Source: Psammoneis japonica | Lineage: Eukaryota | Length of the DNA stretch: 64,000 bases | Assembly: GCA_008632985.1 (NCBI GenBank) | Contig: QPGO01000073.1 | Span: 124,001 to 188,000 of the forward strand | Direction of reading: 5' to 3' | Part shown: one piece after another, positions 13,450-62,017 of the stretch | How positions within the stretch are numbered: the first letter of the stretch is position 1 | How the letters are laid out: the number at the start of each line of letters is the position of its first letter | Program-made: the position numbers and the translations under genes | The notes under the pieces: model-generated | Told to the model about the DNA's origin: nothing | What the model saw: only the letters and a program-made list of their open reading frames with translations | Database searches by the model: none

Positions 13450-16400
13450 GTCCGTTGATTGCGCAACCCGGGGATGAAGGATTTTCAATGCCGATTTTTG
13501 TCCCTTAATTGTGCATCCCGGGGGGTGGACGATTTTCAACACCTGGTTTGTGTTCATTGATTGTGCATCCCGAGGGATGAATGGTTTTCAATGCCCAGTT
13601 TATGTCCTGTGAGAATCCAATCTGTGAGGGCACTGAATGCTCTCGCTTTTGCATGTTTCGTCTTCCTGCAAACCCTGACAAAAAATGGCTATTTTGCAAA
13701 AGCTGGGGGGTGGAAAAGATGATGTGCAATCGAGAAATAGCTGCAGAAGCTGGGTGGGTTGCAATGAGCCCTTTGGCACCTCCACTGTCACAACTGGCAT
13801 CAAGCTGAAGATGGCAGGTGGAAGATTCAGGAGTGTGACAGCACAAATATGGAGAAAAATGCTCGCCCTCATTTCCTCCTCTGAGCTGCAATCCGCAGGA
13901 GCACATTGATGAAGTGAGGAACTCCACACAAGGTCATGGGTGAAGCTGCAATGCCAAAGCAAAGGGATTGCCAGTCTGGGTGTCTGAGATGGCAGCTGCA
14001 CAAAGGAGACCAGCACTCAAACCCACCAATGCCAACAGCGACCACCAGGAGGGTGTGGTGCAGGGTGCAGGCCATGGTCTGTCATGCCATGCCAATGATC
14101 TCAAAAAGACAACATTGTTGACAGTCAAATGCACAAACATCAGGTGTTGAGCACAGATGTGGAAGAAGAGCACAAGGATCAAAAAGAGAAACTCTTGCTC
14201 CCAAAGGCAAAGCTCAAGAGCACATTGTCAAGAACAAAGGAGGCAAAACTTTGACAAAGATCGCAAAGGCAGCAAGCTCTGACGAGCTGCACTGGAAAAA
14301 CCAGACAAGGAGAAAGAGACATGCAAAAAGCAAGCCAAAAAAATTTGAAGGCAAAAGTGACAAGCTCGGCTTTTTCTTGGGATGGTCTGAGGCCTGGCAG
14401 CTCCTTGGAAAATTTGTCAGAGAACACACACACTGCCTTTCTAACCTTTGAGTGCAAAACGAAGCATTTCTGGAGTTTCTCAACTGCACAATGAAGCATT
14501 TGATCCCAGTGACAGCTTGTGCAAGAATGTCAAATGGCACTCAAGGCATGTTGGAATGAAAAAGAGATGAGCTGTGAGAGGGATTGTGCATTGCAGACCA
14601 GCAGAAGTGAGCCACATTTCAGTGTTCTGCTGTCATGGATGAAGACTTGATGATGGATGTTGAGGAAGATGAAAATTCCAGCCTGAAACATGGTGGCAAC
14701 CTCAAAGGCAGCAGAGATGATTGGTTTCTGGCTGGAAGATTGAGTGTCCTGGTTTGGGTGTGTGCGCTCATTGCAAATGTGACAGATTTGTCTGCTTTTT
14801 GGGGTGCAAGTGCCGAGCCTTGTGTCTGATGTTGTTTGCAGTCAGCACAACTCACAAATTTGGCCATGCCTTGATCTTCATGCTTCCAGACACAACTGAG
14901 CAAGAACAAGGTGCCCACCAAAATGCACCAAAGAAATGATGAACTCCACTTTGCACTTGGCTCACAAGCACAGATTGACAGCAAATTGGCTGGCAGATTG
15001 TGACCCAGTTTGAACAACATGGCACAAGCCAACCCCAAGAGGAAACCCTGCGATGGCGCAGGTGTCCCAACACAGCTCTTGATCAGGCAATGCTTGGGTG
15101 TGCAGTGAAAGCTGACAAAGCACTCATCATTGACAACAAGTGTGCCATGAAAGGCCTCATCTGTGCAAAGTTGGCAAATCCAGAGAGTCATGGTCAAACA
15201 CAAGCAAGTGGCCAAATGACAAGACAAAGTTGCTTGAACTCAGTTTGGCTGTGATGCCATTTTTCATGTTGGGCATCCAATGCAAAGCTTCAAGGTTGGT
15301 TTCATCCAAGAGCTGGGTGGAAGGAACATCTGTGCTGAGATTTGGGGGGCTTGTTGCATGGAGATTTGGCACTCAGTGGATTGGTGTGGATGTGAGACCC
15401 AATGTTGAGCTGCAGGCATGGAGAAGGAAGCTGAGCAATGGTGGGAGATTTGTCAAAGCAGCAAGGAAAAGTGCTCAAGAAAGTTCTTGATGAGGTTTGG
15501 CCAGCAAAGCTCAAAGGTGGGCTGAACTTGCTGCAATGTTTGCAGTGTTGTTTTGGTCTTGGTTTTGTTCTCCAACTACACCAACCTGCTTCTCTGACAG
15601 CTTTGGACAATGGCAAAGCCTCCTGTCAACATGAGTGCAAATGGGTCTTCAATTTCATTTTTTCCAATGCATTCTCCATCATTTGCAGAGCATTTTGTGC
15701 CACAATGTCACAAGAAATTTTTGCTTTTGTTGCCTCTTGCATTCCTGCACTCAAGAGTCTCAGTCACACAAGGTCCAAAATGTGGCCCTGGGGTCCACAA
15801 CAGCAAACCACAACCACACCTTTTGTTCCAGCAATCTGGGGGCAAAACAAGAAAGTTGTGGCCTGGGGGGGGGGGGGGGGGCAGTTTCCCAACACCCTGA
15901 TGATGCTGGTGAGAGTTCACAAGGCAACAGCTTTGTGATGGTGGCACAAACCACACCCTGCTTGACATGCCACACAGCAGTGGTGGTGGTGTGTCAATTG
16001 ATTGAATCTCCCAAGAATGTGCCCATCTCACTCAAATGTTGTTGCCTCTGCTGCTGTCTGCAACAAAACCAAGGTGGTGGCGGCTTCTTTCCCATTGCCG
16101 TGATCTTTCCAACTGTGGCACCTCCAACAAAGTCTTTTGAATCAGCTCATTGCCAATGGCACAAAACTCCTTCACAACAAAGTTTCCATGCATGTCTTTC
16201 CATGCATGTCTTTCCATGCATGTCTTTCCATGCATGTCTTTCCATGCATGTCTTTCCATGCATGTCTTTCCATGCATGTCTTTCCGTGCATGTCTCTGGT
16301 CTCTGGGGCATCTAAGGGGCCACAGTGTCGCAAAGTTGTTGGCAAATCTTCGTTCCTGACGCAGCTTGTTGACATCCAAAAAAGCCACAAAGCCCCTCCT

Positions 16401-17540
16401 TGAAGCAGCATGTCTGGGACTGTTTGGTTGTGGCTGTGGCTGCATTTGAAAATGTCTCATTTTGGTCATCACAAGCTGCTGTCACTGGCCTTTGCTTCTC
16501 CAGACACAAAAACATGTGCTGCTTCAGGTGAGCTGCAAGTTTTGCCTTTTTCAAATCTCTGCTCTCTTTCCCTCCTGCTGCACAACTGCTGCATGCCAAT
16601 GCCATGCACTGCAACTCTGCAGCATGCTCTTGCCATCCAGAGGAGGGCCAAAACACCAACAATGCCAGATTGGCTTGTGGCTTCACACAGTTGTGCTGGG
16701 GAGTGTTGTGGGGGGTTGAATGTTGCTGTCAAGAAGCTTTTCTGCTCATTTTTGTTGAATGTCATTTGAAGCTCTGGTGGCATCTGCTAACCTAAAGAAC
16801 AGCCCTGCCAGCTGTTGAACAAATGCTGCCATTTTGTCATCACATGGTGTGCTCCAGCACCTTTCATGAGAGCCAGTCAATGGCGTGCTGCACCAAAGAT
16901 GCGCCGCCCATGCTGAGGGAGCAGCTGAACAAAGCCTCTGCAAAATCCTCTGTTGTTGAGCTTCACAACTGCCATCAATGCAAAGAGATGGAATTTGTGG
17001 TGCTGCAACCTTCTCATTCTTGCCAGCACACCAAAGCGCGCACTCTTTTCTGCTTCCTTCTCTTTTGTGACACCAGCAGCCCCCCCCCGTCAAAAACCAG
17101 TGTTTGACACACCCCACTTCTTGGTTGAGAGCCAGGGCCACAGCAGCTGCAAAACACCCCACCATCATGTGAAACTTGATTCTGTGGTGAAGAAGCAAAA
17201 TTCCCAGCACAAAATTTCTCATGATGCTGGTTGGCACAAACAAGTGCTGTTGTGGGTGAGGCCGGCAGGCGCCAAAGGGCAAGAACAAGAGAGCTTTTGA
17301 TTTTTTGTCTCTCTCATGCAGCTGCTTCAACAACCCTTTGATTTCCATTGTGAGCAGCAGCACGCACCTTGCAAGAGACATGAAAAGAACATTGTGAATG
17401 CCATCGCTCCAATGATGGCTGCAGGGGAAAAGCATTGACATGATTTCAACCCAAATCCCGGCGGTTGAAAAGAAGAAAGGCCTCTGATGCATGCACTCGT
17501 GCGACTGACGCACCCAAGACATTTCAGAATGGCCGATTTA
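13450..17540. mobile_element. Hypermutated (TpA- and CpG-depleted) repeat domain of undetermined transposon class
   Basis: Only about five TA dinucleotides by eye between 13851 and 17530. Many overlapping Cys/His-rich spurious ORFs. Short imperfect direct repeats at the left edge (~13454-13490 and ~13555-13594). No diagnostic protein motif recognised. Confidence 0.6.
16187..16295. repeat. 14-bp tandem repeat (CATGCATGTCTTTC) x7 plus a partial unit
   Basis: Seven perfect units from 16187 to 16284, then CGTGCATGTCT. Confidence 0.95.
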
Positions 17541-17743
17541 CTATGGGGGACCGTTGAATTTGACGTCATGAAGAGCCTATTTTTGATTGTCATTGTCAAT
17601 TGCAAAAGAGCCGCATTAAGCCTATAAAGGCTCTAAAAAGGCTATTCCCAACATCGTTCCCATCCACCATACGTTGAAAGACTCACCATGACGCTCCCGC
17701 CGTCTTATTGAAATATTGCAACGATATACACTACCAAAACACG

Positions 17744-18906
17744 ATGCAACAAGAAGAAATCGCAACAACACCGCCACCACCACCAAGACAACGACGACGA
17801 CTTGGTTCGTTTCGACGAAATTCTCATGCCAATACTACGACGATTACAGAAAGCAGTGCTAATAATTCGCAACAGAAATCAGAGTCTGTAGCCGTCAAAC
17901 CAGATGTCCTCTTGGAAGAAGCGGCTTTGGGCAGTCTCGATATTTTGTGTCGTCGACCTCATGTCGTGAGTGTGACTCTAGTCAAGGATTCTCCGGAAAC
18001 GCCCTTGGGCTTTCGTCTGTCGTCTCATCATGATCAAGTTTTCATTGAAGACAAGACGTCATCAAGCTTGCTGTGCATGCCCAATCCGTGTGCACTCTTT
18101 CCTCATAAACAAAACGATCATTCTCTAACGTTTTTTCAATCGGGTGACGTCTTGGAATCGATCAACAATTTTGATGTCGTGGTGTCGAACCGCACGAAAT
18201 TGAAGAGTACTTTGATTCGCTCCAAGCGGGCTTGATCACAATCATGGTTTCCACCACGAACAACAAGAATGAACAACAACAAGAAGAAGAATCAAGCTAT
18301 CGTCTATGTCAAGCGATTGCTCTTAGACCAGAACAAGAAGAACAACAAGAAGACACACCCTTTGATACTACCGCAGATACTACTACTACTACTACTGACA
18401 CCATACTGGATCCAGGAATTACTTTCGATCAAGACTCACAGGGACGTTTAATTCTTCAAACACTGGCTCCTCAAGGTTGGTTTGGTGGTCGGAAATGTGC
18501 ACTCCAAGCAGGTGATTTCGTGGTGGGTATCAACGATTGTCCCTGTTTTACAATAGGCAAACAAGAAGCACAATTGTTATTGGCCATCAAGGCGGGACAT
18601 TCTCCCTTTGTTTCCATTACGACATTGCGTCCTCCCAAATCGAATGCTTGGGGATTGCGCAAAGCGGCCGTGGCATTGGGTGGTGGAACCATGGTGGGGG
18701 TGGGTGCCGTAATCATGGCGACACCCCTGCATCCCATTGGACACGTCATGGCAGCCGGGGGTGTAGCAGCACTGGGAACGGAATTTGAAGCACCCAAACG
18801 TGCCGTCGAATCCGCGAAAAAGAAATGGCAGGGCATGACGACGAGTCGAAATAGTGACGAGAATGTGAGTGATGAGAGTGCTCTTGTAGTACATCAGCAG
18901 CAATAG
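17744..18906 (+). CDS. Protein with two PDZ-like segments and a C-terminal hydrophobic Gly-rich hairpin; frameshift near 18200-18235
   Basis: VTLVKDSPETPLGFRL...FQSGDVLESIN and PGITF...LQAGDFVVGIN are PDZ-like. RKAAVALGGGTMVGVGAVIMATPLHPIGH...LGTEFE tail. Two abutting ORFs (17708-18235, 18232-18906). Confidence 0.6.
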
Positions 18907-19209
18907 AAGGTATATATAATTCAACATGATACCCTTACACTAAAATAACAAGAGCCAGTTACATACTTCAGCGTCAATCAAAGGGCACGAGGATACACGG
19001 AAGATTAAAAGTGCTGTATCTACCTTTTTTAGTAATTGCACTTATACTGCCGGAAACGGCTCGTCACAACAAGTTACTTCTCCTTTCCAAAAAACGTGAT
19101 TGAATGCGACGGCCTACATTCGAATGAAAAACCTCAGTATTTCAAAATAACTTCATAAACACTACTAAAACTAATACTATTCCCCCTTTTGATCATACTA
19201 CTACTAGCT

Positions 19210-22200
19210 CTAAATAATTAACGCTTTCAAATATACGAAAAGCACAAGATACAGCTGCTCTACCCGAGTTTGAAAAAGGAGATGTATCCTTTTCGAGATG
19301 AAGCTGCCGCAAGCGTCCATCTCGTGAAATTGCCACGCGTGACCCAAGCAAGTCGTCCTTGTTTCTTCCATCCACTTGTCCGACCGGGTATAATCCGTCT
19401 TGTTGGTCAAGGATGCCACAAAGAGTGCACCCTGATCCTCATCATTGGTATCCTTGTCGTCGTCCGTGTGTAGGTTGATTCCAACCGCAAGTTGTTTCCC
19501 ATTGGCACTAATACCGACAGAACTTGGAATGTAATCGTCAGTAAAATCCATGGGATCACGAGACATGGTGTAGTTACCAGTCGTTGCATTCTTCGTCAAG
19601 ACTCGCACCACGGCAATCTCCACATCATCCTGTACAGAGTGCCGGCCAGCGCCAGCAAGGTTCCGTTTTGACTAATGGACACGTCGCTTCCCGAAAAGTA
19701 GTTTTCGTAGTAATAGTCCCACTCGTAGTCATAGTACATGTCATCGTCATAACCGGTTTCTTCCTCGTCTACTTGCTCATCATTCGAAGTGCTCTTGATG
19801 GGAGGAATGACGGTTTCGGTCCAATTCTTTTTGCTCTCGTCATAGTCATACACCTTGGCAAGAAAGGACGAATACGATCCCGTCACAACCACCGTTTGAC
19901 CGTCCCCGCTAAAGGACACTCGTACATTGGCACCATAATCGTCATAGGCAATGCTTCCAATCAAATCACTACCCTTGTTCTTCCACGACGAGTCGTTCTC
20001 ATCCAATTGCACGACACGCAAAAAGCTTCCCGTATCATCCCATCCGTCGTCCAGTTCCTCCACAATGGAACCCGACAACAAGACCGTGTTGCCATCGTCC
20101 GAAATACGAACTTGTCGTCCGACATCTTCCACCAAATCTTGTACTTGATCTAAACGCTGTCCCACCAACGTCCAAAGACCTTTCTCTGAAATTTTGTAAA
20201 TCTCCACATAACCACTCTTGCCCGGCGGTGGTTGGTTGGCTCCCACCACCAACACCGTACCGTCACTGCTCAAATCAACCGATTGTCCAAAACCATCAAA
20301 TTCGGCCGTCCCAAACAAGTCTTGTCCGAGTTGCTTGTATTGTTGATCGTTACAACTCCACGCAAAGACACGAACCATTCCGAGATTTTCATCTGTGGTT
20401 TCATCGATCCCCACCGCCACGACGGATCCGTCCTTGGACATGGCCACCGACAGTGTGTGTTGATCTTGTTGTTTGGGCAATTGATCCAAATCACCCACGT
20501 GCGTATTGATTTCGTCATTGGAAAAGGGAACACAAATCGAAAAGGTAGTGCTATTCTTGTTGGTAGTAGTTGGTGTTTGATTTGTCGACGATGACGGTAT
20601 TTCGCTCTTGCCATCATAATTGATTCCATAAAAGGCCACGACACGTTCGGATCCTACAGCGGCAATCTTGCCATTTCCCGATAAACGAACAAAGTTACCC
20701 GGTACACCCATATTAACCGCCTTGGTTCCCTTGCCGACAATGCGCCACTTTTCATCTTGAGTTCGTGTCACAACCACCATGCTTCCGACACACTCCACGT
20801 CCTCACCAATCCACCATGTTTCATCATTATAATCTTCACGACTCGCTACAATACACGCCACTTGTCCATTGCTGGCAACATCGGTAGCGACTTCGACACT
20901 AAAGTCGCCGTACAATTCTTGAAAGGCCAAGGTGCCGTTTGGATTTTGAGAATAATCCACCAATTGTACCATGTTTGTAATTTTGGATTTTGTTGTATTG
21001 TCACAAAAGGCGGAATAGCACCAAATCACCATCATGATCCATTTCGACCGATTCAATCCAATAATAAACTTCCTCATCAACATCTTGATGAAATGTCGTG
21101 CTTTTACTGGATTCCGCCTTCCATTCGTCAGCATAAAAATCAAACTTGTACAACAAGACACCAAATTGTGGATCGGCAATACTGAGTTCTTCACCATTGT
21201 CGGAGAGTGACAATTGTGGATCATAATCATATCCATCGGGATATTGGACGGTACTGACAATATCGGCACCCTTGGTGGACCACAGACGCTTGTCGGGATT
21301 GTAGGCAAAGTTGCGCACCACAAAGCTGGACGAATTGGTCCACGCCAAAACACTCAGGGTTTGTCCCGTATTGCTCAACGCAATCGCATTGCCCAATTGA
21401 TAATAGGCAATTTCCGTATATTCCAATTCTTGAATGGTTTGTCCCAACAATTGCCAACGATTCGTTTCATCCTCGTCGTAATAATAGACTTGTACAAATC
21501 CCGTCCCACCGTCATAATAGGATTGGGGTGCCGCAATCGCCATGACCTTGCCATCGGCCGACGAACGGATGCGATGACCAAATTGTTCATTTTCATTATT
21601 GCCCATTAAATCTTGTCCAATTTGTTTCCAATTCTCATCCACACAATCATAACCAAACGCACGTACCAATCCGACAGAATAGTTTTGAGGAGAATCAAAA
21701 TCACTCATGCCGACACTCACCAACGAACAATCGTCATTGATATCCATGGCGGTAAAGGTATACTCGTAATCATCATCTGCATCATTTTGTTCGGGAACAA
21801 TTTCTAAATTTTGAATATGAAAGACATCGTAATTGGCTTGAACTGGATCACGAGCCACCATGGGAAGGGTACACATTTGTATCGAGGGCAACGGTGGGAG
21901 TGTCGGTGTGGGTTTTAAGTGTTTTCTTGGGAGCCAATGTCGGCTTTAACGACGTCTTGTGTGGAACTGCTGGTTTGGGTGCGGACGACGGTGTTGATAC
22001 AGTAGAAGGAGGAGGAACGCTGTTGTTGTTGTTGGTTGCTCTTGCTGGGTGATGAACTCTCGTCGTTCTTGTTGTACACCACGACAGACGCTACAGTCGC
22101 TACCAACAACACACATACCAACATGCAAATCAATCGATGGCGTCGTTGCTTTACCTTTTGTTGCACATACAAATCACCCACTGCTCCATCAACACCCATG

Positions 22201-22397
22201 TAATAATCTTCTTCACCCGCAACCGTGGTGGAAAAGTTGGAGACACTCATATCATCATCATTGGATACTTTGAGAAATAAATCACCACGTTTTTCTCGTT
22301 TTTCACAAGATGCATTGTTCATTTGTTCAAAATGATAACGTCCCTTCTTTTGATCAGCACGATCTACCAACTCAATACTCGATGGAGCCGATGGCAT
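19210..22397 (-). CDS. Type II membrane protein with FG-GAP-like beta-propeller repeats, split by several frameshifts
   Basis: TM segment LICMLVCVLLVATVASVVVY followed by repeats WKQIGQDLMG..EQFG..SSADGKVMAIAAP..GFVQVY and YKQLGQDLFG..DGFGQSVDLSSDG..VVGA, spread over ORFs 21915-22397, 21001-21891, 19596-21353 and 19210-19623. 3' end approximate. Confidence 0.72.
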
Positions 22398-22996
22398 AAT
22401 GATGATGATGCGATGATGATGTGTACAGTAACAAGGATGACAGCAACAGCAGCAACGATACAGTCAACACCAAAACAATGCGCTCAACGTGACTGAAAAA
22501 AAAAATGACGACACCGGCCGGCGCGATTAGTGTGTGATGGACAGACGTTGAAAGCATCTTTTGTGCATGCATGTACCGGCACTTATTGAGCACTGTGTGA
22601 CGACACGTGTAACACACGCACGGGGTGTTTCGTGAGACACCACAATGACAAGGGGTTGCTGCTGCTGCTGCTGCTGTCGCCTTGGATGTTTGGAAGAATC
22701 AAGAGCGTCAAAACAATGGTGGAATCTTTTGTTTGCAACAAAGAATCTGCACATGGTCGTTGAAAAGTGATGCTGTTTGAGAGACAGGGAGTGACGGGGG
22801 GCGCTGGAGGAGCGAGAGAGAGGTGTGCTGCTGCCCCCGTGCATGAGAGAAAAAAGAGACAGAGATCACACAAAAAGCCAGAGAGATGAGTGGTCCAAAC
22901 AAGATGTGTGCAATGTGCAAAAGCACGCCAAGAGCCAAAGAGGAGAGAAAGAGAGAGATCTCTCACCAGGCTTGTGTGCTGCACACACACACACAG

Positions 22997-23060
<64 letters not shown>
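22997..23060. repeat. Compound microsatellite (TC)n(AC)n
   Basis: Directly visible. Confidence 0.95.
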
Positions 23061-23062
<2 letters not shown>

Positions 23063-24255
23063 GAAACCCATGCTGCTCTGCTGCATCATGTCAATGGCAC
23101 ATTTTTTCAGCCAAGGCAGTCCATCTCACCAGCACACTCCAACAAAGCAATCAAGGCTTGTGCACCAACAATGAACAATTCTTTGTGATCTCCACCAAGA
23201 CAAGCAGGCGACCAACTGACACCCACACCAGAAAATTGCTGGGAAGGAGGGGCCAAAGGACACATGCACTCTGGCGCCTCGTGCAGTGCTCCTGCATGTG
23301 ACCTTGGGCCTGCAAAATTCCAAGTGCAAGCTCCACAGTGAAATTGTTGAGCAGCAGTGCGTGCATTTGTGAATGATTGCCAACAGAAAAAAGGCAATTT
23401 TGTCAGAATGCACCCTCTCCTTGACACTTGAAGTGCAGCCTGCATCATTCTTTCCAGTTTGCCTGGGGTGTTTCTTCAGACATTCTAGAGGGGTGTGTGC
23501 CCAGCCTGTTTTTGTTGCCCCCCAAAATGAAAAAAATAGAGAGCCTTTGGCTTTGCAAAACAGGGAGTGCGTGTGAAGCCATTTTGCAGAAGATTGAGCA
23601 CAAAAGTGTGCTGGGTGTGTGACACATGGTGTGATCCAAAACACTCTCATGTCACAGTGCGGCCAGTGGCATGAGCCCCACCTCTGGAGCTCAAGCATGT
23701 CAGCACACAACTTTTCTAGCTGCGTGGTGCCATCTTGGCCACCCCCCCCCCAGCTGCTGCCTGCTGTGCTGGACCAGTTTTTCTGAAACATGCTGCCGTT
23801 GAAACTTTTGTCAAAGACCATTCTGGCCTCTTGGTGTGTTGGTGTGTGGCTGCCTTTGTCAGTCTTCTTGGCAACTTTTTTTCAGATCTGTTGTGTCCTT
23901 TGATGTGTGCCAGCACTCTGAGGTGATGATGGCAGATCAGAGAATGGCACTCGCACCCCCCACCACACATGTGAGAGCAAAAAACACATGCAGAGTCAAG
24001 TGCACTGACCATCTCTTGCAGGAATGAATCTTTTGCCGATGCCCACCAGAGCTGTTCCCTTCTTGTTCTTCCACACATCTCAGGTGGGCAGGAGGATGAT
24101 TCCCCATCAACAGCAATGACAGCACAAAACAATGTGCAGCACAAACAGCAAAGTCACAGCAAGACAAAAAAAAACAGCTGCACAGACATGGTGCACAAAA
24201 ATTGCAAAGCAAAACCAGAGTGGCAAGAAACAAAGAGTGCACACTGCAAATGTCA

Positions 24256-24257
<2 letters not shown>

Positions 24258-24301
<44 letters not shown>
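24258..24301. repeat. (AG)n microsatellite
   Basis: Directly visible. Confidence 0.95.
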
Positions 24302-24303
<2 letters not shown>

Positions 24304-30153: not shown

Positions 30154-30185
30154 CGTGTGCTCGTAAGGTTAATACCAGTTGTCCG

Positions 30186-48993: not shown

Positions 48994-51900
48994 GATTAGC
49001 ATCACATTCGTGTAGCATAGGCGCAACGGCAAAATAAAAAGATTCGATCCAATAAGACTACCATGACGGGTCTTTCGAAGCAACAGGCTACCGCTATGGA
49101 TTTTCAACATGCTTGCATGTGTGATAGTTTAAACATTATCTAGCAACTAGCTAGAGGCGCTTCGTTGCATTGATAGACATGCATGATGCTTCAGGACAAG
49201 TCGTCACCTGCTTCCCAAAGATGGTGTTCTCCAGTTGATGCTATGACCTGTAGTGTGACATGGATATCTGTCTTCCTCGCCAGCAATTTCAATTCTCAAA
49301 AAAATTTACAAAAGCGCTGACACAGAGACACAGAGATGACCATGTTTCCGGAGTTCTGCAGTCAGTTGGTGAAGCTGTTGCTTCTTGCTGACAGAAGGGG
49401 GTGTGGTTTGACACCCAGCCAGTGGGCAAAAAAACTGTCTCAGTTGTGCTGACTTGCAAGCAAGACCAAAAATTGAGCTTGAGCTGTTTGCAGCCTGGGC
49501 GCTGTGCACTGGCAAGGAGAGGGCCTCCTGGGCTGGTGTGAGTGCCACTGTGAAACAAAAACCCAGCATTCATGCAGGGCAAAAAATGTGCAGTAGATGG
49601 AGTGAGCAAGAAAGAGGCCATGCCAAGGATTCTCCCATTGTTCCAGCAAGTTCAAGAACACCACTGCAGAGTGGCCAAGGCATCTGCACCATTGCTGAAA
49701 TCAGATGGCACACTTCACCGTGAGGAGATGTTTGAGCCTGTTTGTGTCTGCAAGTGATGGAGGGTGTCACTTGCATCACAAGCCCAGTGGCTGGGTTGTT
49801 GTCACAGCTGCCACTTTGGTCATTGCCGCCGTTGCAGTTGCAGCCATCATGATGGCAGCAGCCTCTTTCATCACACACTCAGCTTGCTGAGCCCCAACCT
49901 CCATCATTGCATTGGCCGCCATGACCACCACCACTGCAGTTTGGTCCCCCCTCCCACACACACACACAACTGAGGTCATCAGGAATGTCACAACATTGAA
50001 GTCATGTGTGACCAGACAAGAGAGTTGCCTGGCTTGGAGACTGACTCTTGCTGCCCTCTGCTCCTTTCTTGCCACACTCTCCGTGCTTGTTGTGGCTGCC
50101 ACCACTGCCGTCATGTTGCCGCCAGTGTTGCCATGCTCTTTGCAGCTTTTTTACAGCACTGATGCCAAAGTCAACAAGGTGCCACCATTGCTGTTGTTTG
50201 AGTGTGGGAAGACAAAATGGGATGAGTGAAGTGGTGCTGAAAGCATGTCAAACTCCTGCTCCAAAAGAAGTGGGCCACATGGGAGAAGCCATCATTGTCA
50301 TTGTCAGACATCTGCTGTCCCAAAGAGCTGGTGTGAGTTTGCTCCACATCTCGCAAATGACAAAAAGTGCATTTGCCATTGAAGCACTGCCCAACCATCA
50401 CCTTGTTGTTCATCAACAGAGATGTGACCCTCATGCACGATGCATGCCAAGGGGTCAAGAGGAGCAGACAAAAGAGGAAAGACACGCAGGTTGAAAGTTG
50501 ACATGTTTGGCAGGGTTGTGGACACAGCCCATTGGGGGCAAGCCAATGGAGTGGTTGAGAAATCTGTGCTGATTCCCAAAGAACATGATGCAAAACAGTG
50601 TCTCACTTGAAGAGCCAGCAGGGGATGGAAGTGCACTGTTGAGGCCAAGCTGGAAGAAAAACAGATGCTGGGGACACCTTTGAAAATGTTGGCATGCACG
50701 TTGGCCATTGTTGTCAGGCATTTTTGATGATGAACACTGGCCAACTCTCCGCTGAGATTTCCAGCTGCAGGCCAGAATGCTGGCATCACACCAAGCTGAG
50801 TGCCAAAGGCACGGCAACTGCCAAAGCAGCCCCATTGGATGTGTGTGCACACTCACCCATCATGCTCAGCCAGCTCCTTTTGGCACACACCACACACAAA
50901 ACCAGAAACAAAAGAAGCTGATGTTCTCTGACTCACGAGGCTCAAGGGCAAATCACAAACACTGAAGTTTTTTGCACACAACTTGTCAACAATCAGATGT
51001 TGTGCTTTCCTTGGCACAGTCAGCTGGCAAGAAAGGAGCTGAGCCCTTGTTTTCACATTCACAAAAGGAGGGTCAGAAAGATGAGGAGGAGGTGGAGGGA
51101 AACAAAAGCAACATTGTCAAAAGGCCAGCCATCAAGATGGAAATGTTTGCATCTCTTTGGTCCCAGCGCAGCTGCGGCATCAGTGTGCATCATTTGGCTG
51201 CCCAGAGCAGCAGGTGTGCATCCACAAAAGCCTTTCTGGAGCAACCGCCAATCACCAAAAAAGGCAGTGGAAAAAAGTCAATGATGGGGAGGTGGGGAGA
51301 AGCTGCTCCAGCTGTGGCTGAGTGTTTGACATGCTTGAAGGAGATCACTTGGGGGTCCTGGGCATGGATCACCATGGCACAAGAGGTGCTCTGATGAGCT
51401 GTGTGAAAAACTTCATTGCCAGCATGCATGTGCTTTGTGCTGCAACAAAAGGCACTTGAGCGTGTCATTGAACTGTGAGAGAGCAATGCCTTGCACTTCA
51501 TGCTGTCACAAGTGCAAGGCAAAGCAAGCACCATGAACATCAAAGTGCTCCAAGCAGGCCAAGTGGACAAGGGTGAGTGTCTTTGTGCTTCAAGATCCAG
51601 CTGCTGGCAGGCCCACTCTGTCTCACAACAGTGAGCAGTGCACAGTGCAAGCATCAAAGTGCACTTTGAGCATGGGGGTCATGAGAGTGAGCATCGCACA
51701 GTTTTTCAAGCCCCTGCTGACAATGGGCCACACCCTGCTCCTTTGAGCCATCACAAGCATGACAAAACACAACCCAAATTCTGTGTTTTGGGTGCTGCTG
51801 GGCTCCCATCCCACAACTCCGCAATGAGCCACTGGCCCATGCCCCATCACAAGCATTGCAGTGAGAAGCATGAGCCCCAAAGCACTTTGAGCCTTTGAGC

Positions 51901-52678
51901 ATGATGAGGGCAAGCATCACTGCGCTTCTTCATGTCAAGAAGCACAGGCGACCAACCACAAGGACAACAAGCATGAGACTGAACATGTGGCTGGTGCTGG
52001 CTGGTCGAGCAAAACACAACATTGTGCACTCTCCACTGGCTGCACCAGACCAATTGTGGACTGCCAAGACCACCATCAAGTTGACGGAAGAGGCCCGCAA
52101 TGAAGATGACACTAACGAGAACTGCGCTGACTTTGCAAAATCTTGGTTTGCCAGCGATGAACATCCAACCAAAGTGCAAGACCCTCACGGATGTGAACCC
52201 TTGCAGTCATTTGTTTGACAACAATCTGCGTTTTGCACCAGCACATGAGCTCAAACAAAAATCATGAACAATGTTTGTTCACAGCATGAAGACAGCTGGA
52301 CACAGCCATTCAGTGAAGTGCTCAATTTTCTGATTTTGAAAAACCGAAATTTCTGAAATTCCCCGTCACAGATCAGCTTGCGCACAGGCTTGGGCTGCTC
52401 GGGGATCGGCAAGTTGCTTCACGGGACAAGAACAAACGTTGTTGAGCAAGAAAATGTCGAAATGTCGAGTCAACGACGTGGATCACGCACTTCAACATTG
52501 TCCAAAGCTGAAGCCATTCAGAGGCATTGTGTGACATGGTGTGGCACTGGATTGTCACAAGAGACGCTTTCCGCCACCCAGCCTTCCCGGCTGCATCTCG
52601 TAAAAGGGGAAAGTGCAAAAGCTTTCTTTCCGGTGAAGGCGGTTGCAATGCACTCTTCGAGATCAACAGCAAGATGGG

Positions 52679-55600
52679 CAGTGGCACAGCCAGGGGGGTG
52701 CTAGAGGGTGCTCAGCACCCCCAGTCTTCGAGAAAACTCGCCAGTCCACGAGCTGCACGAGCTCTAAAAAACCTCTTACATTGCATCGCGCTCTCTTGCC
52801 ACATTGCCAAAAGACCATTTCTGCATGGAAACCACGTGAAATCATGTGACGAACATCACTTCTCAGTCGCACTTGCGCAGAAGTCGCGTTCATTCGTGCT
52901 GCAGGTGGTGTGACCCACCTCCTCTTTCCAAATTTTGTTTTTTCCAGGCATGTCGGCGGTCTCTTTGTTTGCTCTGGGTTGCCGCATGGATGTCAACTGA
53001 CCCTCTAGACTTCAAGTCGTGAAAATGGCAGGTCGTCAAACAGTGTGGGATGCTGCACATGATGACAACGCTGACGTGGAAGGTCATCCTTTAAGCAATT
53101 GTCCCTTGTGCACAGTGCAAATTTTATGCCGTGCATGAGGCGGAGGACATGAGAAGGTTGTGCCGCACACAAAGGCAATTTTTTGCTCACTCAACGGGGC
53201 ACTTTTTTGAGTCATCACACATTGCCCTTTGTCATTTTAATCAAGTTAGTCGAAGACAGCTTTAAACCGCCGTCATGCGGCAGTGCGCACAGAGAAGATG
53301 GATCTTGTGGCACAAATGTCGCCAGTCTAACGCAAGCAACTGGGACAGTGAACATGGAAAATGTGATGGCATTCCAAGCAGAAAGAGTTGCTCTTGTCAG
53401 CTGTTGCTTGCTTCCTGTCTCTCTGTTGTTGTTTCTTCTTTTGCAGTGGAAGAGAGCACCAAGCTTGTCTCGCCCAGCACTTCGAGCTTGTCTCACCCAC
53501 TTCCTTCCTGCCACCATGCCACACACAATGATCAAAGCATTTTGCTTTTCAACTCTGCCACAAAGTGTTCTGAGTTGGCAATGCAAGAGGCCGGCTGAGC
53601 TCTGGCAGCTCCTGGGAGCTGGCCAGCGCCAAGCACCACTGATGCTGCTCTTGGCTGGTGCCTCACAAGCAGTGGCTGTGCACAATGACGTGCACTCTTG
53701 AGCCACCACCTGGTGCCAAGACTGCACCAAGTTGGCTTGCTTCTCTCTGTGCAGCTTCTTGACTTTGCCCATGCCATCCTCATCAAAGCAATCTTTTGTT
53801 TTCTCACCCTGCTTTTGCCGCTGCTTGTCTTGTGCTGGCAGCTGGCACATGCTGCCTGGAGATCATTTCTGGCCACCTCAGATGCTGCATGCCTGTGAAC
53901 TTCTGCTCTTTTCATCTTTTCTTTTTGTTGTTGTTGCTCTGGCTGCTTGCTGCTCCAACACACAGCAGAGCTGCTTTTTGCTGCTGACACACTGCTGCTC
54001 TTGCCCATGACCTTGTTGGCGCCACAGCAAAGCACTGTGCTGGGAGCTCTGCACCAAACACCAAAGCTGCAAAGATGATTGCCCAGCCCTGCAAAGAGGT
54101 CATGGAGCACATGCTTGTGCTCTCATTTGACAGAAGCAGTGCACAGCAGCAGAGAGACATCTTCAGCAAGCTTCGGTGCTTTCGCACATGCTTGGAGATT
54201 CGCTGACAAGCGCGCCGCTGGAGTGGTTTTTTGTGAGGCACAGCTCTGAATGACGTCTGGGTCACACCCCAAAGTGGTGTTAAAAACACTTTTCAGGGTG
54301 CTGCTGCTTGGTCATGGACAACACACAGAGATTCTTGGCTGGCCTGCTGGGGCGGCAATGAGCTTTTGCCAGGTTGTGCTGCAAAGAAGCATCTCACAAC
54401 TCTGCTTGCTTTCAGCTCCCAAACAGTCTCACAATTTCCCCCTTTTTTGGCATTTTGTTCACCCCTTCCACCCAGTTCTTCAAGGCACAGCACATGCCAC
54501 TGTCCTCTGTGCAGGCTCTTGTCCCCTCTCTGGTGGCTTCTCTCTTCTTGCTTCTTCACGTTGCTCTGCCTCCTCTTGTGGCCTTCTCCACTGGTGCTCT
54601 GGTGTGGCTGGGCACTTTGTTTCTACACAAGCTCCTTGTCTGCATGTTGCATTTTGCTTTGCATGTTGTTCCTTGTCCTTGAGTGCAGCTGCCTTTGATG
54701 ATGGTTGCTTGTGCAATTGTCAGTTCTCCTGAATTTAAAATCCGGGTTGCTTTTGCGACATGAGCCTCGCTTTGCTCGAGTCGAGTCAATCAAAACCTGT
54801 TGCCCACACCAGGCAAAAAAATGCCAAAAACGGCAGGTTGTCAAACAGTGTGGGATGCCGCACATGACGACAATGCTGACGTGGAAGGTCATCCTTTGAG
54901 CAATTGTCCCTCATGTGCGGTGCAAATTTTGTGCCGCGCGTGAGGCGGAGGACACAAGAAGGTTGTGCCGCACACAAAGGCAATTTTTTACTTGCTTGGC
55001 GGGGCACTTTTTTGAGTCATCACACATTGCCCTTTGTCATTTTAATCAAGTTAGTCGAAGACAGCTTTAAACCGCCGTCATGCGGCAGTGCGCACAGAGA
55101 AGACGGATCTTGTGGCACAAATGTCGCCAGTCTAACGCAAGCAACTGGGACAGTGAACATGGAAAATGTGATGGCATTCCAAGCAGAAAGAGTTGCTCTT
55201 GTCAGCTGTTGCTTGCTTCCTGTCTCTCTGTTGTTGTTTCTTCTTTTGCGGTGGAAGAGAGCACCAAGCTTGTCTCGCCCAGCACTCCAAGCTTGTCTCA
55301 CCCACTTCCTTCCTGCCGCCATGCCACACACAATGATCAAAGCATTTTGCTTTTCAACTCTGCCACAAAGTGTTCTGAGTTGGCAATGCAAGAGGCCGGC
55401 TGAGCTCTGGCAGCTCCTGGGAGCTGGCCAGCACCAAGCACTGCTGATGCTGCTCTTGGCTGGTGCCTCACAAGCAGCAGCTGTGCACAATGACGTGCAC
55501 TCTTGAGCCACCACCTGGTGCCAAGACTGCGCCAAGTTGGCTTGCTTCTCTCTGTGCAGCTTCTTGACTTTGCCCATGCCATCCTCATCAAAGCAAGCCT

Positions 55601-56790
55601 TTGTTTTCTCACCCTGCTTTTGCCGCTGCTTGTCTTGCACTGGCAGCTGGCACACGCTGCCTGGAGATCATTTCTGGCCACCTCAGATGCTGCATGCCTG
55701 TGAACTTCTGCTCTTTTCATCTTTTCTTTTTGTTGTTGTTGATCTGGCTGCTTGCTGCTCCAACACACAGCAGAGCTGCTTTTTGCTGCTGACACTGCTG
55801 CTCTTGCCCATGACCTTGTTGGCGCCACAGCGAAGCACTGTGCTGGGAGCTCTGCACCAAACACCAAAGCTGCAGAGATGATTGCCCAGCTCTGCAAAGA
55901 GGTCATGGAGCACATGCTTGTGCTCTCATTTGACAGAAGCAGTGCACAGCAGCAGAGAGACATCTTCAGCAAGCTCCGGTGCTTTCGCACATGCTTGGAG
56001 ATTCGCTGACAAGCACGCCGCTGGAGTGGTTTTTTGTGAGGCACAGCTCTCAATGACACCTGGGTCACACCCCAAAGTGGTGTTAAAAACACTTTTCAGG
56101 GTGCTGCTGCTTGGTCATGGACAACACACAGAGATTCTTGGCTGGCCTGCTGGGGCGGCAATGGGCTTTTGCTGGGTTGTGCTGCAAAGAAGCATCTCAC
56201 AACTCTGCTTGCTTTCAGCTCCCAAACAGCCTCACAATTTCCCCCTTTTTTGGCATTTTGTTCACCCCTTCCACCCAGTTCTTCAAGGCACAGCACATGC
56301 CACTGTCCTCTGTGCAGGCTCTTGTCCCCTCTGGCGGCTTCTCTCTCTTCTTGCTTCTTCGTGTTGCTCTGCCTCCTCTTGTGGCCTCATCCACTGGTGC
56401 TCTGGTGTGGCTGGACACTTTGTTTCTACACAAGCTCCTTGTCTGCATGTTGCATTTTGCTTTGCATGTTGTTCCTTGTCCTTGAGTGCAGCTGCCTTTG
56501 ATGGTGGTTGCTTGTGCAATTGTCAGTTCTCCTGAATTTAACATCCGGGTTACTTTTGCGACATGAGCCTCGCTTCGCTCGAGTCGAGTTAATCAAAACC
56601 TGTTGCCCACACCAGGTAAAAAAATGCCGTGAAAACGCGCTAAAAATGAGTGAAAATGTTGTCTGTGTGTAATTTTTTCCGTTCCGCGGGCGCCTCATTC
56701 CCCGGCGAGGCTGTCAACCCCGTGTGGGCGTGTGCTCGCTTTGCTCGCAGTTGTGGCACTCCCAGTTGATTTGGTCTGGCTACGCCACTG
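52679..56790. mobile_element. hAT-type DNA transposon (4.1 kb), probably non-autonomous, hypermutated
   Basis: Right TIR CTGGCTACGCCACTG (56776-56790), left TIR CAGTGGCACAGCCAG (52679-52693). 8-bp TSD AAGATGGG (52671-52678) / AAGACGGG (56791-56798). No transposase motif recognised. Confidence 0.82.
53026..56628. repeat. Internal tandem duplication of a ~1.8-kb unit (53026-54830 and 54831-56628)
   Basis: Both units start GGCAGGT.GTCAAACAGTGTGGGATGC and end CCCACACCAGG.AAAAAAATGCC. The ORF track shows near-identical ORF pairs offset by ~1805 bp. Confidence 0.93.
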
Positions 56791-57024
56791 AAGACGGGCA
56801 TGGACGCAGTGGCTTTGGCCATTGAAAAAAGAACAAGCACGAAAGTGAAGTGCTGTTTCAATCAAGCACAAAGTTTCTTGTCAAGTCCAAGTCTGTTGAA
56901 CACCGAGTGGAGGCCACCTTTGGGAAAGATCACGTGCGTTTTGATGCAGCAACTTGCAAATTGGTGAGGGAAGCGAAGAAGAGAGGCAAGCATGGGAAGG
57001 GAAGATGAAAGGCAAGCAAGGCAG

Positions 57025-60000
57025 GGAGGAAAGACAAATGAGTGCACTCAAGCACACTTGAAGTGCGCCCTTTTTTGTCTGCCAGATGACCGCGTAGAAT
57101 TCCATGTGCAACTTCAGTCGCAAGTGTGCTTTTCAGTCGTAAGTGCACTTTTTAGTGTGCTTTGTGTTCCATTCGACAAGTCCAACACAGCCATCATTTT
57201 CAACCCAGTTTTTTCTCCCAGAGTTCTGTCACGCAGTTTTCCATCATCTGCAAAAGTGCAGGTGGTCAATTGCTTTGGTCATTTGGCACTGTTTCAATCG
57301 CAACCAGATCATCGAAAAAGTGAAGGTTCTGGAGCTTGGCACATTTTCTGCACATTCCTGCGCAAGTCATGGCTTGGTTGCGAATGGCAAACTGAGTGTG
57401 CCTTGATTTGCAATTGTCAAGACTGGTCGATGCATCAATTTCAACCCTTTTTTTTCTCCCAAAATTCCATCATGTGTCACACGATGTGATGCACAAGTTT
57501 TCATTGTCAATTGCTTTGGCCTTTTGGAACCATCTTGATTGCAACCAGATCACCCAAAAAGCAAAGTTGGAGGTTCTTGGTGCATGCCCCGCACATTTCT
57601 GCGCAGGTGGCGATTGATCAATTGAGTGCACTCTGTGCATCACTGTGCTGAGTTTCTGCGCAGAAAATGCTGTTGACGTCCAACACTGAGTCCCGCGAAA
57701 ACTCAGTGGAAATTCCTGTGCATCGCACACAACCGCACACAACTCAACCAAAATTGTCCACAGTGCAAAGTGCAATCGACAAGGTGACCATAGCCGCCAT
57801 TGTCTGCCTTGATTTTTTCCCTGCACATCAATGTTTTTGTTTGTTGTTTTGTGCATTCGTCGCATTTGTGTCATCTTTCGTTGTTTGTCTGATTCATTCG
57901 CTGTTGTTGCTGCAGTGCTGTTTCCACTCTGTGTGCATGCAACACAAATCGCGCAAACATGTGGTGTTTCCACGCCGCACAAAATTTCTGTTGAATTCCA
58001 CATGTTCCGCATCTTGCATTTGATTTGCCTTTCCCGCCTTGCAAAGAAGCACTGCAGCACTGCTTGGTGAGTGAAAAACCCAATTTCTTCACAGTTGCGC
58101 CATGTGGGCTCCTGTTTGTCTGACCAACCTGTCAAATGTGGCACCCCAATTTTGTTTTTTACAGAGGACCGTCAGACACATCCACACACTCTCGCTCTTC
58201 CAGGGACAGGAGAGCACCTGTTGCCACCACAATGGATGGGGACAACTCACAAGATGATGGGAGAAGCTTGTCCCAGCATGAAGAATCTGCTCTGGACAGG
58301 AATTTTTTCCGCCAGTTTCTTTTGTCACAAGCAAGAATGGAGCAGATTCAGTCTCAGCAGAGGGTGACTGAAATCTTCCGGGTGATGGAGGCTGAGGTCG
58401 GCTCCAGGCACACCCAGCCCAGGGTTCACTGTGCAGAGGACAGACACCCCTCAGCTGCTGCTTCTGAGGCTGTCAAGCCCCCTGTCATGAGCTCAAAAAA
58501 GGCTGTGGTGGAAGAGCATGAGTTTCCAAACTGCGAGATGCAGTGGCGGGCCAAAGGCTTGGGTGAATTCTCCCCCACAACAGGCTGGGCAATGGGCACT
58601 TGCTCAACTAAAAAGTCCACAGATGGCTTGAGAAAAGTTTGCAAACACTGCATGGGTGTCTTTGTTTGCTCCCTTTGTAGAGAGTTTCTTGAAAGGCCCC
58701 GGCAGCCTCAGACAGGAAGGAAGAAGTTTGGGTCGCCACTCCCTCCCAAGCTGGTGTGCCCCAATCATGAGCAAGAGTCAAAATTGGAGCACAAAGAGTG
58801 CACCTGCCTGCTGACCTGTCAAGAAGTCAGTGCCAACTCTTGGCTCATGAGCCACAAAGGGAGGCACCAACACCCAAGACCTCCACCATCGAAGCTCCCA
58901 ATGGCAGCACAAGGAAAGCTTGAGGAGCTTGTCAGAGCTGCTCCTGAGTTGACTCCAGCACAGCTGAGACTTGGGGCTGCAACCAGGCCTCGAGTGTCAC
59001 AGATTCACCCAGCTCTTCACAACAAAGATCGTGCAAAAAACATGAGGAAGAAGATCTTAAAGGAAACAGGGATGAGCTCCACCATTGCCAGCCTTGTGAA
59101 TTTCCGAAAGGAAGTGAACCAGAGCTTCATTGTTTCAGAGCAGCTCACCACAGATGATGCTCACATTGTCATGCAAGACCAAGACATGATTGACATGCTG
59201 AGAGAGCCAGCATCACCCATGCAAACTGACTCTGTGGAGGGATTTGTTGTTGATGCAGACTTCCAGGGGCAGATCAATGTCACCTTCTCTTCACAGTTTG
59301 ATGCAATGTTGCAGCAGTGGGTCCCAGTCTGCATTTCCATCTTGTTTGGCAAAACTTCTGCACACTACAAAGCCCACTGGTGCAGGGTGCTTCAGTGCTG
59401 CCAGGCCAACACCTGGGATGATTTCTTGAACAACTTCCAAGGAAACACAGCGACTTTTCTGACGCCATTCGAAATGGCTTCTTTGCAGCCATGCAGGAGC
59501 TTGCACTTGAGCGTCATGACAGGGAAGCCACAGATGAGGAGATTGCCCAGTTTTACAACTTTTGTGATGTTCACTTTGAGAGGTCCCGCATGAGGGTGGC
59601 CAGAAACTCTGCTGTTGTCAATCCAGACAGGGAGGATGACTTCAACCACCATGTCAACAGCTTGAGGGGTTTTGTCCAAGGAAACTTTGCTCAGTTTGAA
59701 AAGTCCTGCAAGCTGCTCATCAGATCTTACCCAAATGCCGAGTCATGGCTGAAGTGGTTTCTCAACCCAAGGAGGGCAAGGATTTTCTTTCCTGCATGCA
59801 GGCAGCTGGATGAGCTGCAGCAGCAGAGGCATGAAAAGCTCTGCACAGACACAAATGCACAGGAAAATGTTGGAAAACAGTTTCAGTGCAGTGCACCAAA
59901 GACCAAGTTGACCATTGGAGAAGCAGTTCTGCATGCTTTCAAGTTCTGCAATGCAAATGTCTTTGACAGAAAGGCAGCAGCCAGGGGAATTGCACGTCAT

Positions 60001-62017
60001 TACGGAGCTTGCAAGAACATCCAGTCAGGCCACAAGAAGCCCAAGAGCAAAAGAAAGCAAGGGAAAAAAACAAACGATGGAAGAGCACCAGACACCACAA
60101 AGCAGCTGACAAGGCCAAAAAAGAAGCCTGCACCCAAAAAGAGGCCAGGGGAGTTGGCAGCAAAGAAGCAGGCAGGAGGCACCATGAAGCAAACAAGGAT
60201 CAAGTTCAAGACCCAATCATCAAAAAAAACTGCACCCAGGCATGCTGTGACCTCATTCCAAGGCATCCCATGGAATGTGCCCAGCAAAGGAGACTGTCCT
60301 GGCATCAACAACACTTGCAGGCTGGACAGCTTGTTGACTTTGCTGTTCTCACTTCACAAGCAGCAGCTGATGAAGAAGCCAATGGCGGAGCTGGCTGATC
60401 CAGACAACCTCCTGTCAAAGACGTTCAGCTTGATGGAGAAGGGTGAGTTTGATGATGCCAGGCACCTTTGGGTGAGTGACAATTCTGTTCTCAAGGACAT
60501 GAATTGCCAAATTAGAAAGAGCCGGTTTGCCAAGTTCAACATGTTTGGGTCACTCTTTGAGGTTTTTGGCCCACCAGTCAGTCCAGGAGCTCCCTTCCCA
60601 ATGAGCCAGTCATTTTGAGCCTGCTTTGAATTCTTTGAAAAGTGTGTTGCAGGTGACTCTTGGTGTCCTTCATGCTTCTCTGATGAGGATGAAGATGGGC
60701 GTCCAAGGAAAAAGATCTTCAACACATTCCCCATTTCAGAATTTGACAGTGCCAGCCACAGCCTCCAAACTTGCCTTGAGAGTGACTTGCAGAAGTGTGG
60801 GAACTTTCAAGGTGGTGTTGGTGAGGGTGAGGATGCAGTGATGGTGGCAAGTGACACCCCAGAGGAGAGGCAATGCTGCGGATTCCTGAACACCACTGAA
60901 AAAGTCATCACGAAGTTCCCACACATGATGGTTTTTACAAGCACCCCAAAACCCGGTCTTTCACTTGGAGATTTGGAGACAGAGTTTTCTCTTTGTGGGA
61001 AACAGTTTGGCTTGAGAGGGACCTTGAGTGGAGATGGTGGAGTTCACTTCACTTCATGCATCAGAGGAGAGGCAAGCTGGATCTTTTATGATGGAATTGG
61101 GGATGATTTCCCTGTCTGGGAGAGGTGGATGTTTCGCGAACAAGACCAGGTTTTTCAGGGAGAGCACAGCTCCCAGATGGTCATGGCCACAGTGTGCGAG
61201 GTCTCAGACTTGGAGGTTGGAGAGGAGAGCAGCAAGCCAGGGGAGCAAGAGCAAAGCAAGCCAGGAGAAGAGGAAGAGCATTTGGAGATTGGAGAGGAAA
61301 GCAACAAGCCAGGGGTGCAAGAGCAAAGCAAGCCAGGAGAGGAAAAGCAAGGCAAGCAACAGAAGAGAAAGAGAGTGGCCTTGGGCAATGGTGCAATCAA
61401 GTGGAAACAAGTGGCCAGAGCAGTCAAGCTTGAGTTCAGGGAGGAGGGCAAGACAGGGGGAAGATTGCCAACATGCAGGGGCTGCGGCCAGCTCCTCTCT
61501 CAGAATGAAAACAGGCTTCTCTGCACCTTTTATGAGAAAAAAGGACACAAACTCAAGACAGAATGGCAGCTGCACTGCAGGCTGACATGCATTGATGGCA
61601 AATTGGATGAGCAATCTCTTCACAAATTGTTTGAAAAAGGGGAGCACCAAGCAGTTCGGGGCCTTCAAGGGCAGCTTGAGCAGGCTGCCAAAAATGTGCA
61701 GCATGTGATTTGAGGCTGAGGTTTTCAAGTTTTCTGCAAACAACAACTCTTTTGTTTGTCTAATTTAGAACTGCTTTGTCTGCACATTGTTGGCTTTTAT
61801 CATGTTCATTGGAGCATTGTCCACTGCTTGGTGCAATGCGTTTTTCATTGTTTGCCGGCACACCCACGTGGAATGTACGGCACAGTGCACAACACACTTG
61901 CAAAATTTGTCCATGCTGCAGCTGGTGTGGTCCCACGTAGAAATGTACGCAAGGGTCATAGTGCACTCGAGTGCACTTGAAGTACACTTGACAAGGTACA
62001 CTTTTTTGACTTTTCCC
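57025..62017 (+). mobile_element. Full-length Mutator-like element (MULE), ~5.0 kb
   Basis: 9-bp TSD GCAAGGCAG at 57016-57024 and 62018-62026. Imperfect TIRs: GGAGGAAAGACAAATGAGTGCAC.. versus the reverse complement of the right end, GGGAAAAGTCAAAAAAGTGTAC... A ~240-bp subterminal tandem repeat at ~57195-57630. Encodes a transposase. Confidence 0.82.
58232..61713 (+). pseudogene. MULE transposase pseudogene: GCM-type Zn DNA-binding domain + DDE domain + USP-like cysteine protease + PARP-type zinc finger
   Basis: GCM-like TGWAM...CMGVFVC...RP...CP...HKGRHQHPRPP. Catalytic QTDS, DFSDAIRNGF, FCDVHF (CxxH) and TNAQEN. Cys box NNTCRLDSLL, His box GVHFTSCIR...WIFYDG. TCRGC...R...WQLHC..C. One frameshift at ~59450 and one in-frame TGA at 60616-60618. 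Confidence 0.78.

Follow-up and report, generated by a model that had tools for sequence, protein, structure and literature searches.

Flanking-base preference of strand-wise TA-to-TG/CA erasure in repeat DNA of Psammoneis japonica

The selective loss of TA dinucleotides from repeat DNA was analysed in a 64-kb stretch of Psammoneis japonica (contig QPGO01000073.1, positions 124,001 to 188,000, assembly GCA_008632985.1), hereafter termed the window and numbered from its first letter. The window is intron-poor eukaryotic DNA, in which the best named relatives of a reprolysin-like gene (4190-6871) come from diatoms, at ~41% identity. A two-state hidden Markov model on TA occurrence divides the window into four sharp TA-erased domains, to which no strand is assigned, and unmutated genic reference DNA, in which genes were identified by Pfam (1-13442, 17539-22610, 24490-33369, 47695-49307 and 61761-64000). 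Domain 1 (13443-17538) retains 10 TA and 43 CG in 4096 bp, domain 2 (22611-24489) retains 4 TA in 1879 bp, domain 3 (33370-47694) retains 59 TA and 408 CG in 14325 bp, and domain 4 (49308-61760) retains 47 TA in 12453 bp. Thus, 120 TA steps remain in the 32.7 kb of erased DNA as compared with 1295 in 31.2 kb of normal DNA, with densities of 2-4 per kb in the domains and 36-45 per kb in genic DNA. Although domain 1 is called from 13443, its saturated core starts near 13851, as the first-pass annotation of this DNA had placed it.

Genic DNA of the window displays an observed/expected ratio of ~0.6 for TA and ~1 for CG, the latter present at 47-56 per kb. In the four blocks the TA ratio falls to 0.01-0.2, CG is reduced and CA/TG rise to 1.6-2.2, while AA/TT remain at 1.1-1.4 and AT is likewise not depleted. 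CG retention varies about threefold between domains (10.5 to 28.5 per kb) while TA loss is uniform (2-4 TA per kb), and the two erosions therefore appear uncoupled. The stop triplets TAA and TAG occur at 1.5 and 1.2 per kb per strand in mutated domains, versus 9.1 and 8.8 in normal DNA, while TGA is kept (22.5 versus 19.4). As a result, long spurious open frames crowd the erased DNA, overlapping one another on both strands.

The TA steps that survive in the erased domains are distributed very unequally among the four classes defined by a purine (R) or a pyrimidine (Y) on either side. Raw counts in mutated and normal DNA were 64 and 192 for YTAR, 30 and 354 for YTAY, 22 and 363 for RTAR, and 4 and 386 for RTAY (chi2 122, p=3e-26). 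Because several survivors are inherited duplicates of in-window repeats, one copy of every in-window duplicate was masked, which left 52/182, 26/337, 18/349 and 4/366, respectively (p=3e-21). TA, TG, CA and CG interconvert with the flanks unchanged, and on this basis ancestral TA in each flank context was estimated as the sum of TA, TG, CA and CG in mutated DNA multiplied by the TA share in normal DNA. The corrected survival (95% block-bootstrap confidence intervals in brackets) is 0.31 for YTAR (52 of 167; 0.22-0.45), 0.093 for YTAY (26 of 279; 0.059-0.136), 0.059 for RTAR (18 of 306; 0.033-0.087) and 0.012 for RTAY (4 of 340; 0-0.025). The YTAR/RTAY survival ratio is 27, with a bootstrap lower bound of 11. 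The first-pass annotation had predicted that YTAR would survive best, YTAY and RTAR equally, and RTAY worst; the order found, 0.31 > 0.09 ~ 0.06 > 0.012, agrees with this, the bootstrap intervals of the top, middle and bottom ranks do not overlap, and uniform survival is rejected after ancestry correction. YTAR, which had been supposed to be hit from neither strand, is indeed the slowest class but is not immune, having lost ~70% of its estimated ancestral sites. The flank preference is thus quantitative, at ~3.5-fold per strand.

YTAR is the largest survivor class in four of four domains. Past 13851, domain 1 retains CTAA four times and CTAC once (n=5), and the survivors of domain 2 are two CTAG, one TTAG and one ATAG. 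After masking, the YTAR/YTAY/RTAR/RTAY counts are 28/11/10/3 in domain 3 and 16/12/6/0 in domain 4; trimming 300 bp off the domain edges still leaves 49/20/16/2. The residual TAs listed earlier as examples are all present and all YTAR (CTAA at 14442, 16313, 16788 and 16793, CTAG at 52702, TTAA at 53238 and TTAG at 53247), although their original coordinates pointed at the flanking base and were off by one. The seven tyrosine codons in the open reading frames (ORFs) of a transposase-like element at 58124-61713, described below, are likewise exactly as claimed, each preceded by a pyrimidine (TTTTAC twice, CACTAC, TCTTAC, CATTAC and TTTTAT twice). The same three ORFs carry 43 cysteine and 41 histidine codons.

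Several controls bear on the ancestry correction. CG survival estimated by the same procedure is flat over the four flank classes (0.36-0.45), and this internal control indicates that the method does not generate class differences. The bias persisted (all p<=1.4e-10) with each of three other baselines, taken from normal DNA within long ORFs, from normal DNA beyond them or from a uniform ancestor. Re-creation of TA from CA/TG predicts 23/25/27/25 survivors in the four classes, as against the observed 52/26/18/4 (chi2 58.5, p=1e-12). Two repeat copies of 85% identity keep TA at common columns only at TTAA and ATAG, which identifies the survivors as old sites. As to double conversion of TA to CG, R..Y contexts retain CG slightly better than Y..R contexts do, a difference that is not significant (p=0.12).

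The dependence on flanks was described by a Poisson model that adds up one loss rate per strand of the TA step, the rate for a strand depending on which base follows its A on the 3' side. This additive half-site model fits the 16 tetramers (goodness-of-fit p=0.47) with rates of 0.38 for A, 0.80 for G, 1.96 for C and 2.29 for T, while a single uniform rate is rejected (likelihood-ratio test, LRT, 90.5, p=2e-21). RTAY survival is predicted at 0.016 and observed at 0.012. The two half-sites act independently and no synergy is needed. Four rates fit somewhat better than a purine/pyrimidine pair (0.59 and 2.08; LRT p=0.014), in the order T>=C>>G>A, and in a case-control logistic model the +2 base, the second 3' of A, contributes further (LRT 45.8, p=6e-10), A being protective and T fastest, while the +3 and +4 positions add nothing. 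The TAY rule on either strand, as first formulated, therefore holds for the split between purines and pyrimidines and not as the sole distinction, since the four bases differ further and the +2 base matters. Half-site survival corrected for flank composition is 0.33 for TAAA and 0.29 for TAGA, as compared with 0.015 for TATC, 0.012 for TACC and 0.005 for TACT; TACG, at 0.16, stands well above the 0.005-0.012 of TACT and TACC. The +2 ranking holds after correction for the altered flank composition of mutated DNA. The per-strand footprint is T-A-N-N and is best described as TAYY.

The identity of the changed base follows the same rule. Parameters fitted on survivors alone predict the TG-minus-CA asymmetry by context (r=0.83, p=6e-5). 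In pooled half-sites, the share of lost TA that turned into TG on the same strand is 0.66 for TAT and 0.70 for TAC, as compared with 0.16 for TAG and 0.19 for TAA, and the bootstrap intervals of the Y and R half-site product shares do not overlap. Eleven in-window copy pairs provide 47 unique TA-to-TG/CA events, with TG/CA products of 6/2 in YTAY and 4/9 in RTAR, and 6/2 and 7/6 in the symmetric classes (7/6 being YTAR); the predicted direction is taken in 15 of 21 events (p=0.039). The original proposal that TAY becomes TGY on either strand fits the pooled product excess, the asymmetry correlation and these copy-pair events. Across the mutated DNA as a whole, the ratio (TGY+RCA)/(TGR+YCA) is 1.25, versus 1.01 in normal DNA (p=1e-7). 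Counts of tyrosine replaced by cysteine or histidine in the protein alignment yielded too few conserved tyrosine columns. CG loss displays no 5' T effect and no TCG bias.

Repeat copies on the forward strand show the direction of the change. A little-mutated copy at 30631-31276 aligns over 654 columns with a fully mutated copy at 38363-38991, and between these "before" and "after" states TA became TG six times and CA six times, while TG became TA once. A segmental duplication, comprising a sulfotransferase-like gene and the adjoining mutated repeat, is found at 31837-35383 (copy A) and 47640-51244 (copy B), also on the forward strand, with 96.8% and 93.9% identity; an N gap (33832-34294) lies inside both domain 3 and copy A. 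The gene is spared in both copies. Near the common boundary of the mutated state copies A and B differ at single TA/TG/CA sites, and some hits thus postdate the duplication. The 85%-identical copies mentioned above (39544-40854 and 43108-44417, forward strand) were hit independently and present 38 TG/CA discordant columns. Such columns were considered as markers of ancestral TA and rejected, as ancestral CG yields the same pattern. Few changes outside TA and CG were observed in the copy pairs. Domain 4 also contains two adjacent 1.8-kb direct repeats on the forward strand (53022-54825 and 54827-56628; 96.2% identity), one of which was masked, with survivors common to both; they differ mainly at CG/TG/CA and TG/CA columns, and may be either long terminal repeats or a tandem duplication. 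Contigs assembled from one sequencing run differ from the window at 482 positions over 35000-54800, and among the 40 differences listed most oppose CG to TG/CA, with no bearing on TA context or on continuing activity.

The transposase-like element at 58124-61713 comprises three consecutive stop-free, heavily mutated frames on the forward strand (58124-59593, 59422-60618 and 60619-61713; 489, 398 and 364 codons), for which four homologues were found. The label MULE, given in the first-pass annotation, found no backing in Pfam: neither the window ORFs nor the four homologues match MULE/Transposase_mut, even at E<=5, or another transposase domain of Pfam, and the search of the element and its homologues gave two sub-threshold GCM zinc-finger matches (E=0.002 and 0.022). 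The nearest named Atlas clusters, identified as language-model neighbours, carry the MULE domain with scores of 0.90-0.94, a lead only, and MULE identity is plausible but unproven. A scan of viral contigs for relatives of the element found none, while a metagenome scan yielded one DNA locus, a 2034-bp contig of another assembly (L001) that encodes a 54%-identical relative of the transposase-like ORF. This contig is itself TA- and CG-erased, with five TA (TTAA three times, CTAT and CTAC) and 13 CG left, the survivors being as the rule predicts. That it is stripped of TA and CG indicates that the same kind of erasure occurs outside this genome. Domain 3 contains a DDE_3 transposase fragment on the forward strand (46377-46988; Pfam E=1.1e-8), near which lies an 81-bp inverted match (47522-47602 versus 46202-46281). 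Between 40001 and 46000 TG is in excess of CA, by as much as +0.41, and skews of G>C and T>A are seen, while most other mutated kilobases are balanced; this asymmetry could be a mutator strand bias in one element or reflect ancestral composition. No domain-wide strand bias is claimed, as the excess of TG over CA is confined to 41-43 kb and 45 kb, with values elsewhere within the spread of normal DNA.

Together, context-dependent survival, additivity over the two half-sites and the identity of the changed base describe a strand-wise TA-to-TG/CA process with a TAYY target, which we attribute to a sequence-reading base modifier, most likely a TadA/ADAT-type adenine deaminase, with a probability of roughly 0.7. 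On this reading, the repeat-restricted process acts on the two strands of the TA step separately, and its target per strand spans four bases, an obligatory T, the A that is changed and two positions at which pyrimidines are favoured; TACT, TACC and TATC are the fastest sites and TAAA and TAGA the slowest. Loss is accordingly quickest where TAY stands on both strands (duplex RTAY), slower where it stands on one, and slowest in YTAR. The short fixed footprint, read per strand, and the sharp edges of the domains suggest a base-modifying enzyme guided to silent repeat chromatin, probably a DNA adenine deaminase that would convert A to inosine, which is read as G. In line with this, TadA and fungal mRNA editing alike favour U/T on the 5' side of the A that is edited (PMC10027721). 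That such a fingerprint points to an enzyme, as first suggested, is a reasonable view, and it is one that we infer rather than observe.

Several points weigh against this attribution. The data name no enzyme and do not separate adenine deamination from modification of the thymine on the opposite strand. Ancestral tetramer counts were estimated from genic DNA of the same window rather than observed directly, and all rates come from saturated DNA of one window. Direction in the copy pairs stands at 15 to 6. The product ratio (TGY+RCA)/(TGR+YCA) spans 0.97-1.78 by piece and is ~1.0 both between 39 and 43 kb and within the element at 58-61.7 kb, while the masked product asymmetry is strong in Y..Y (odds ratio, OR, 1.66, p=3e-10) and weak in R..R (OR 0.91, p=0.23). 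TAGG (/CCTA) is erased far faster than the additive rule predicts, with one survivor from ~82 expected ancestral half-sites (survival 0.012). In L001 the product ratio is 0.71, below the 1.01 of normal DNA in the window, a baseline that may not be that of L001; this value is not counted as a contradiction, the contig's own ancestral composition being outside the comparison. Two reported deaminase preferences also differ from the one described here. Fungal ADAT-type mRNA editing agrees with it in a strong preference for U at -1, but selects A or G at +1 (PMC10027721), unlike TAY. Amphioxus BjADAT2, which can deaminate A in DNA, is reported to prefer GAA for A and TCG for C (PMC10354150), while in the window the A must follow a T, no 3' base is less favourable than A, and CG is lost without TCG bias.

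TadA requires U/T before the A that it edits and accepts C at +1, all 15 mRNA sites in E. coli being reported as UACG (PMC10027721). The erased domains share with it the T immediately 5' of A, as only TA is erased while CA rises and AA is not depleted. They differ at the following positions, where T is favoured at least as much as C at +1 and TACG is relatively protected, rather than C at +1 and G at +2 being selected, and the natural TadA substrate is an RNA hairpin loop. The fingerprint thus matches no reported deaminase preference among TadA, fungal ADAT-type editing and BjADAT2.

The nearest competitor to adenine deamination, unlikely in our view but to be taken seriously, is that T rather than A is modified. 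None of the statistics distinguishes A>G at TAY from T>C at RTA, and a TET/JBP-type oxygenase could oxidise T in 5'-R-T-A-3' to 5-hydroxymethyl- or 5-formyluracil, which would mispair with G and convert T to C. In dinoflagellates 5-hydroxymethyluracil is enriched at TpA, a point for which a literature search found no paper. In DNA, 5-formyluracil is described as mispairing with G, with A:T to G:C transitions as the main outcome (PMC7051996). However, nothing in this organism points to an oxygenase or an oxidised base of this kind, a conversion this close to completion would require very efficient mispairing, and the Bigelowiella preprint discussed below favours deamination, by analogy only. 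A reading of the duplex as a whole, either by a dimeric enzyme on the palindrome RTAY or through a rate set by DNA shape or stacking at the TA step, seems very improbable. RTAY is palindromic as a class, the slowest sites lie in T-tract/A-tract junctions such as TTTAAA, and purines 3' of A stack on it and could hinder base flipping; yet log-survival is additive over the half-sites without synergy and the changed base follows its own flank.

That there is no context preference at all, the survivors reflecting either a different ancestral tetramer make-up or TA re-created from CA/TG by ordinary transitions (e.g. C to T at CAG/CTG), is already strongly disfavoured. It draws on the indirect estimate of ancestral counts and on the fact that CTAG, CTAA and TTAG could come from CHG-type deamination (H, any base but G). 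Against it, the bias survives the ORF, non-ORF and uniform baselines, the near-equal abundances of the CA/TG classes cannot yield the observed survivors, TTAA, the commonest of them, cannot derive from CHG sites, survivors are common to old copies, and the product excess implies that RTAY sites existed and were converted. Error-prone repair synthesis with a polymerase-eta-like WA motif (W, A or T), or RNA editing followed by reverse transcription, is barely credible. WA motifs are sites of A to G errors by polymerase eta, ADAR prefers U on the 5' side, and patch repair could be drawn in by the CpG decay of the mutated domains. However, AA/TT are not depleted where TA has fallen to a small fraction of expectation, which makes polymerase-type WA mutagenesis unlikely, and the copy pairs contain few changes outside TA and CG. 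The erased blocks run uninterrupted for 12-14 kb through mixed repeats, among them a DNA-transposon-like element, and an RNA-editing route is therefore unlikely. ADAR prefers a 3' G, and the 3' order T>C>G>A found here runs opposite to that preference, G at +1 being a poor context. To our knowledge, the ADAR family is confined to metazoans, and its substrate is RNA. ADAR hyper-editing produces A to G clusters in animal repeats with a favoured 5' U, as summarised in the discussion of the same preprint.

Among known systems, the closest likeness is the TpA-restricted hypermutation of integrated giant-virus and virophage DNA in Bigelowiella natans (Mettrop et al., bioRxiv 10.64898/2026.01.13.699255). 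According to that preprint, the changes are almost exclusively A>G/T>C and all at TpA, giving TpG or CpA, they are local with neighbouring host DNA spared, and an adenine deaminase, an ADAT2 homologue, is proposed as the agent. The window presents the same features: changes are A>G/T>C and run directionally from TA to TG/CA, loss is restricted to TpA, and the process is local, repeats being hit and adjoining genes spared. In contrast, the host there is a chlorarachniophyte and here a diatom-like stramenopile, and the events there are 231 de novo TpA mutations that arose in some of the lines during laboratory generations, while those described here are found at saturation in transposon-type repeats. 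No flanking-base analysis was found in the main text of the preprint, whose supplementary mutation table could hold such data. Repeat-induced point mutation (RIP) of ascomycete fungi (RIPCAL, PMC2621366), in which repeat-directed, dinucleotide-specific transitions turn CpA into TpA, is comparable in that dinucleotide transitions on both strands are directed at repeats and mobile elements are destroyed, but its chemistry is the reverse: C to T raises TA in RIP, while here A:T to G:C destroys TA and raises CA/TG. In the literature search, the TpA-erasure signature was found in the Bigelowiella preprint only, and no report of flanking preferences or of TpA erasure in diatoms was found. The process is filed here as the same kind as TpA hypermutation in Bigelowiella, and the flanking-base code as a new property.

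So far, a single preprint of 2026 has described TpA-specific hypermutation. The target code presented here, in which TAYY is lost fast and TARA slowly, the half-sites act independently and the footprint reaches no further than +2, provides a testable specification for the mutator. Candidate deaminases or thymine oxygenases could be accepted or rejected by an oligonucleotide assay, and the code already speaks against the idea that ADAT2, with the preferences reported for it on DNA or mRNA, simply moonlights here. Genome scans could score repeats by the signature, with more sensitivity than by TA depletion alone. The published Bigelowiella mutations could also be checked for the same bias, which bears on whether one system operates in both lineages. 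With the odds somewhat against it, we tentatively propose that TAYY may be the recognition code of a native, chromatin-guided A-to-G DNA editor that would serve transposon defence in diatoms and might be shared with the Bigelowiella system.

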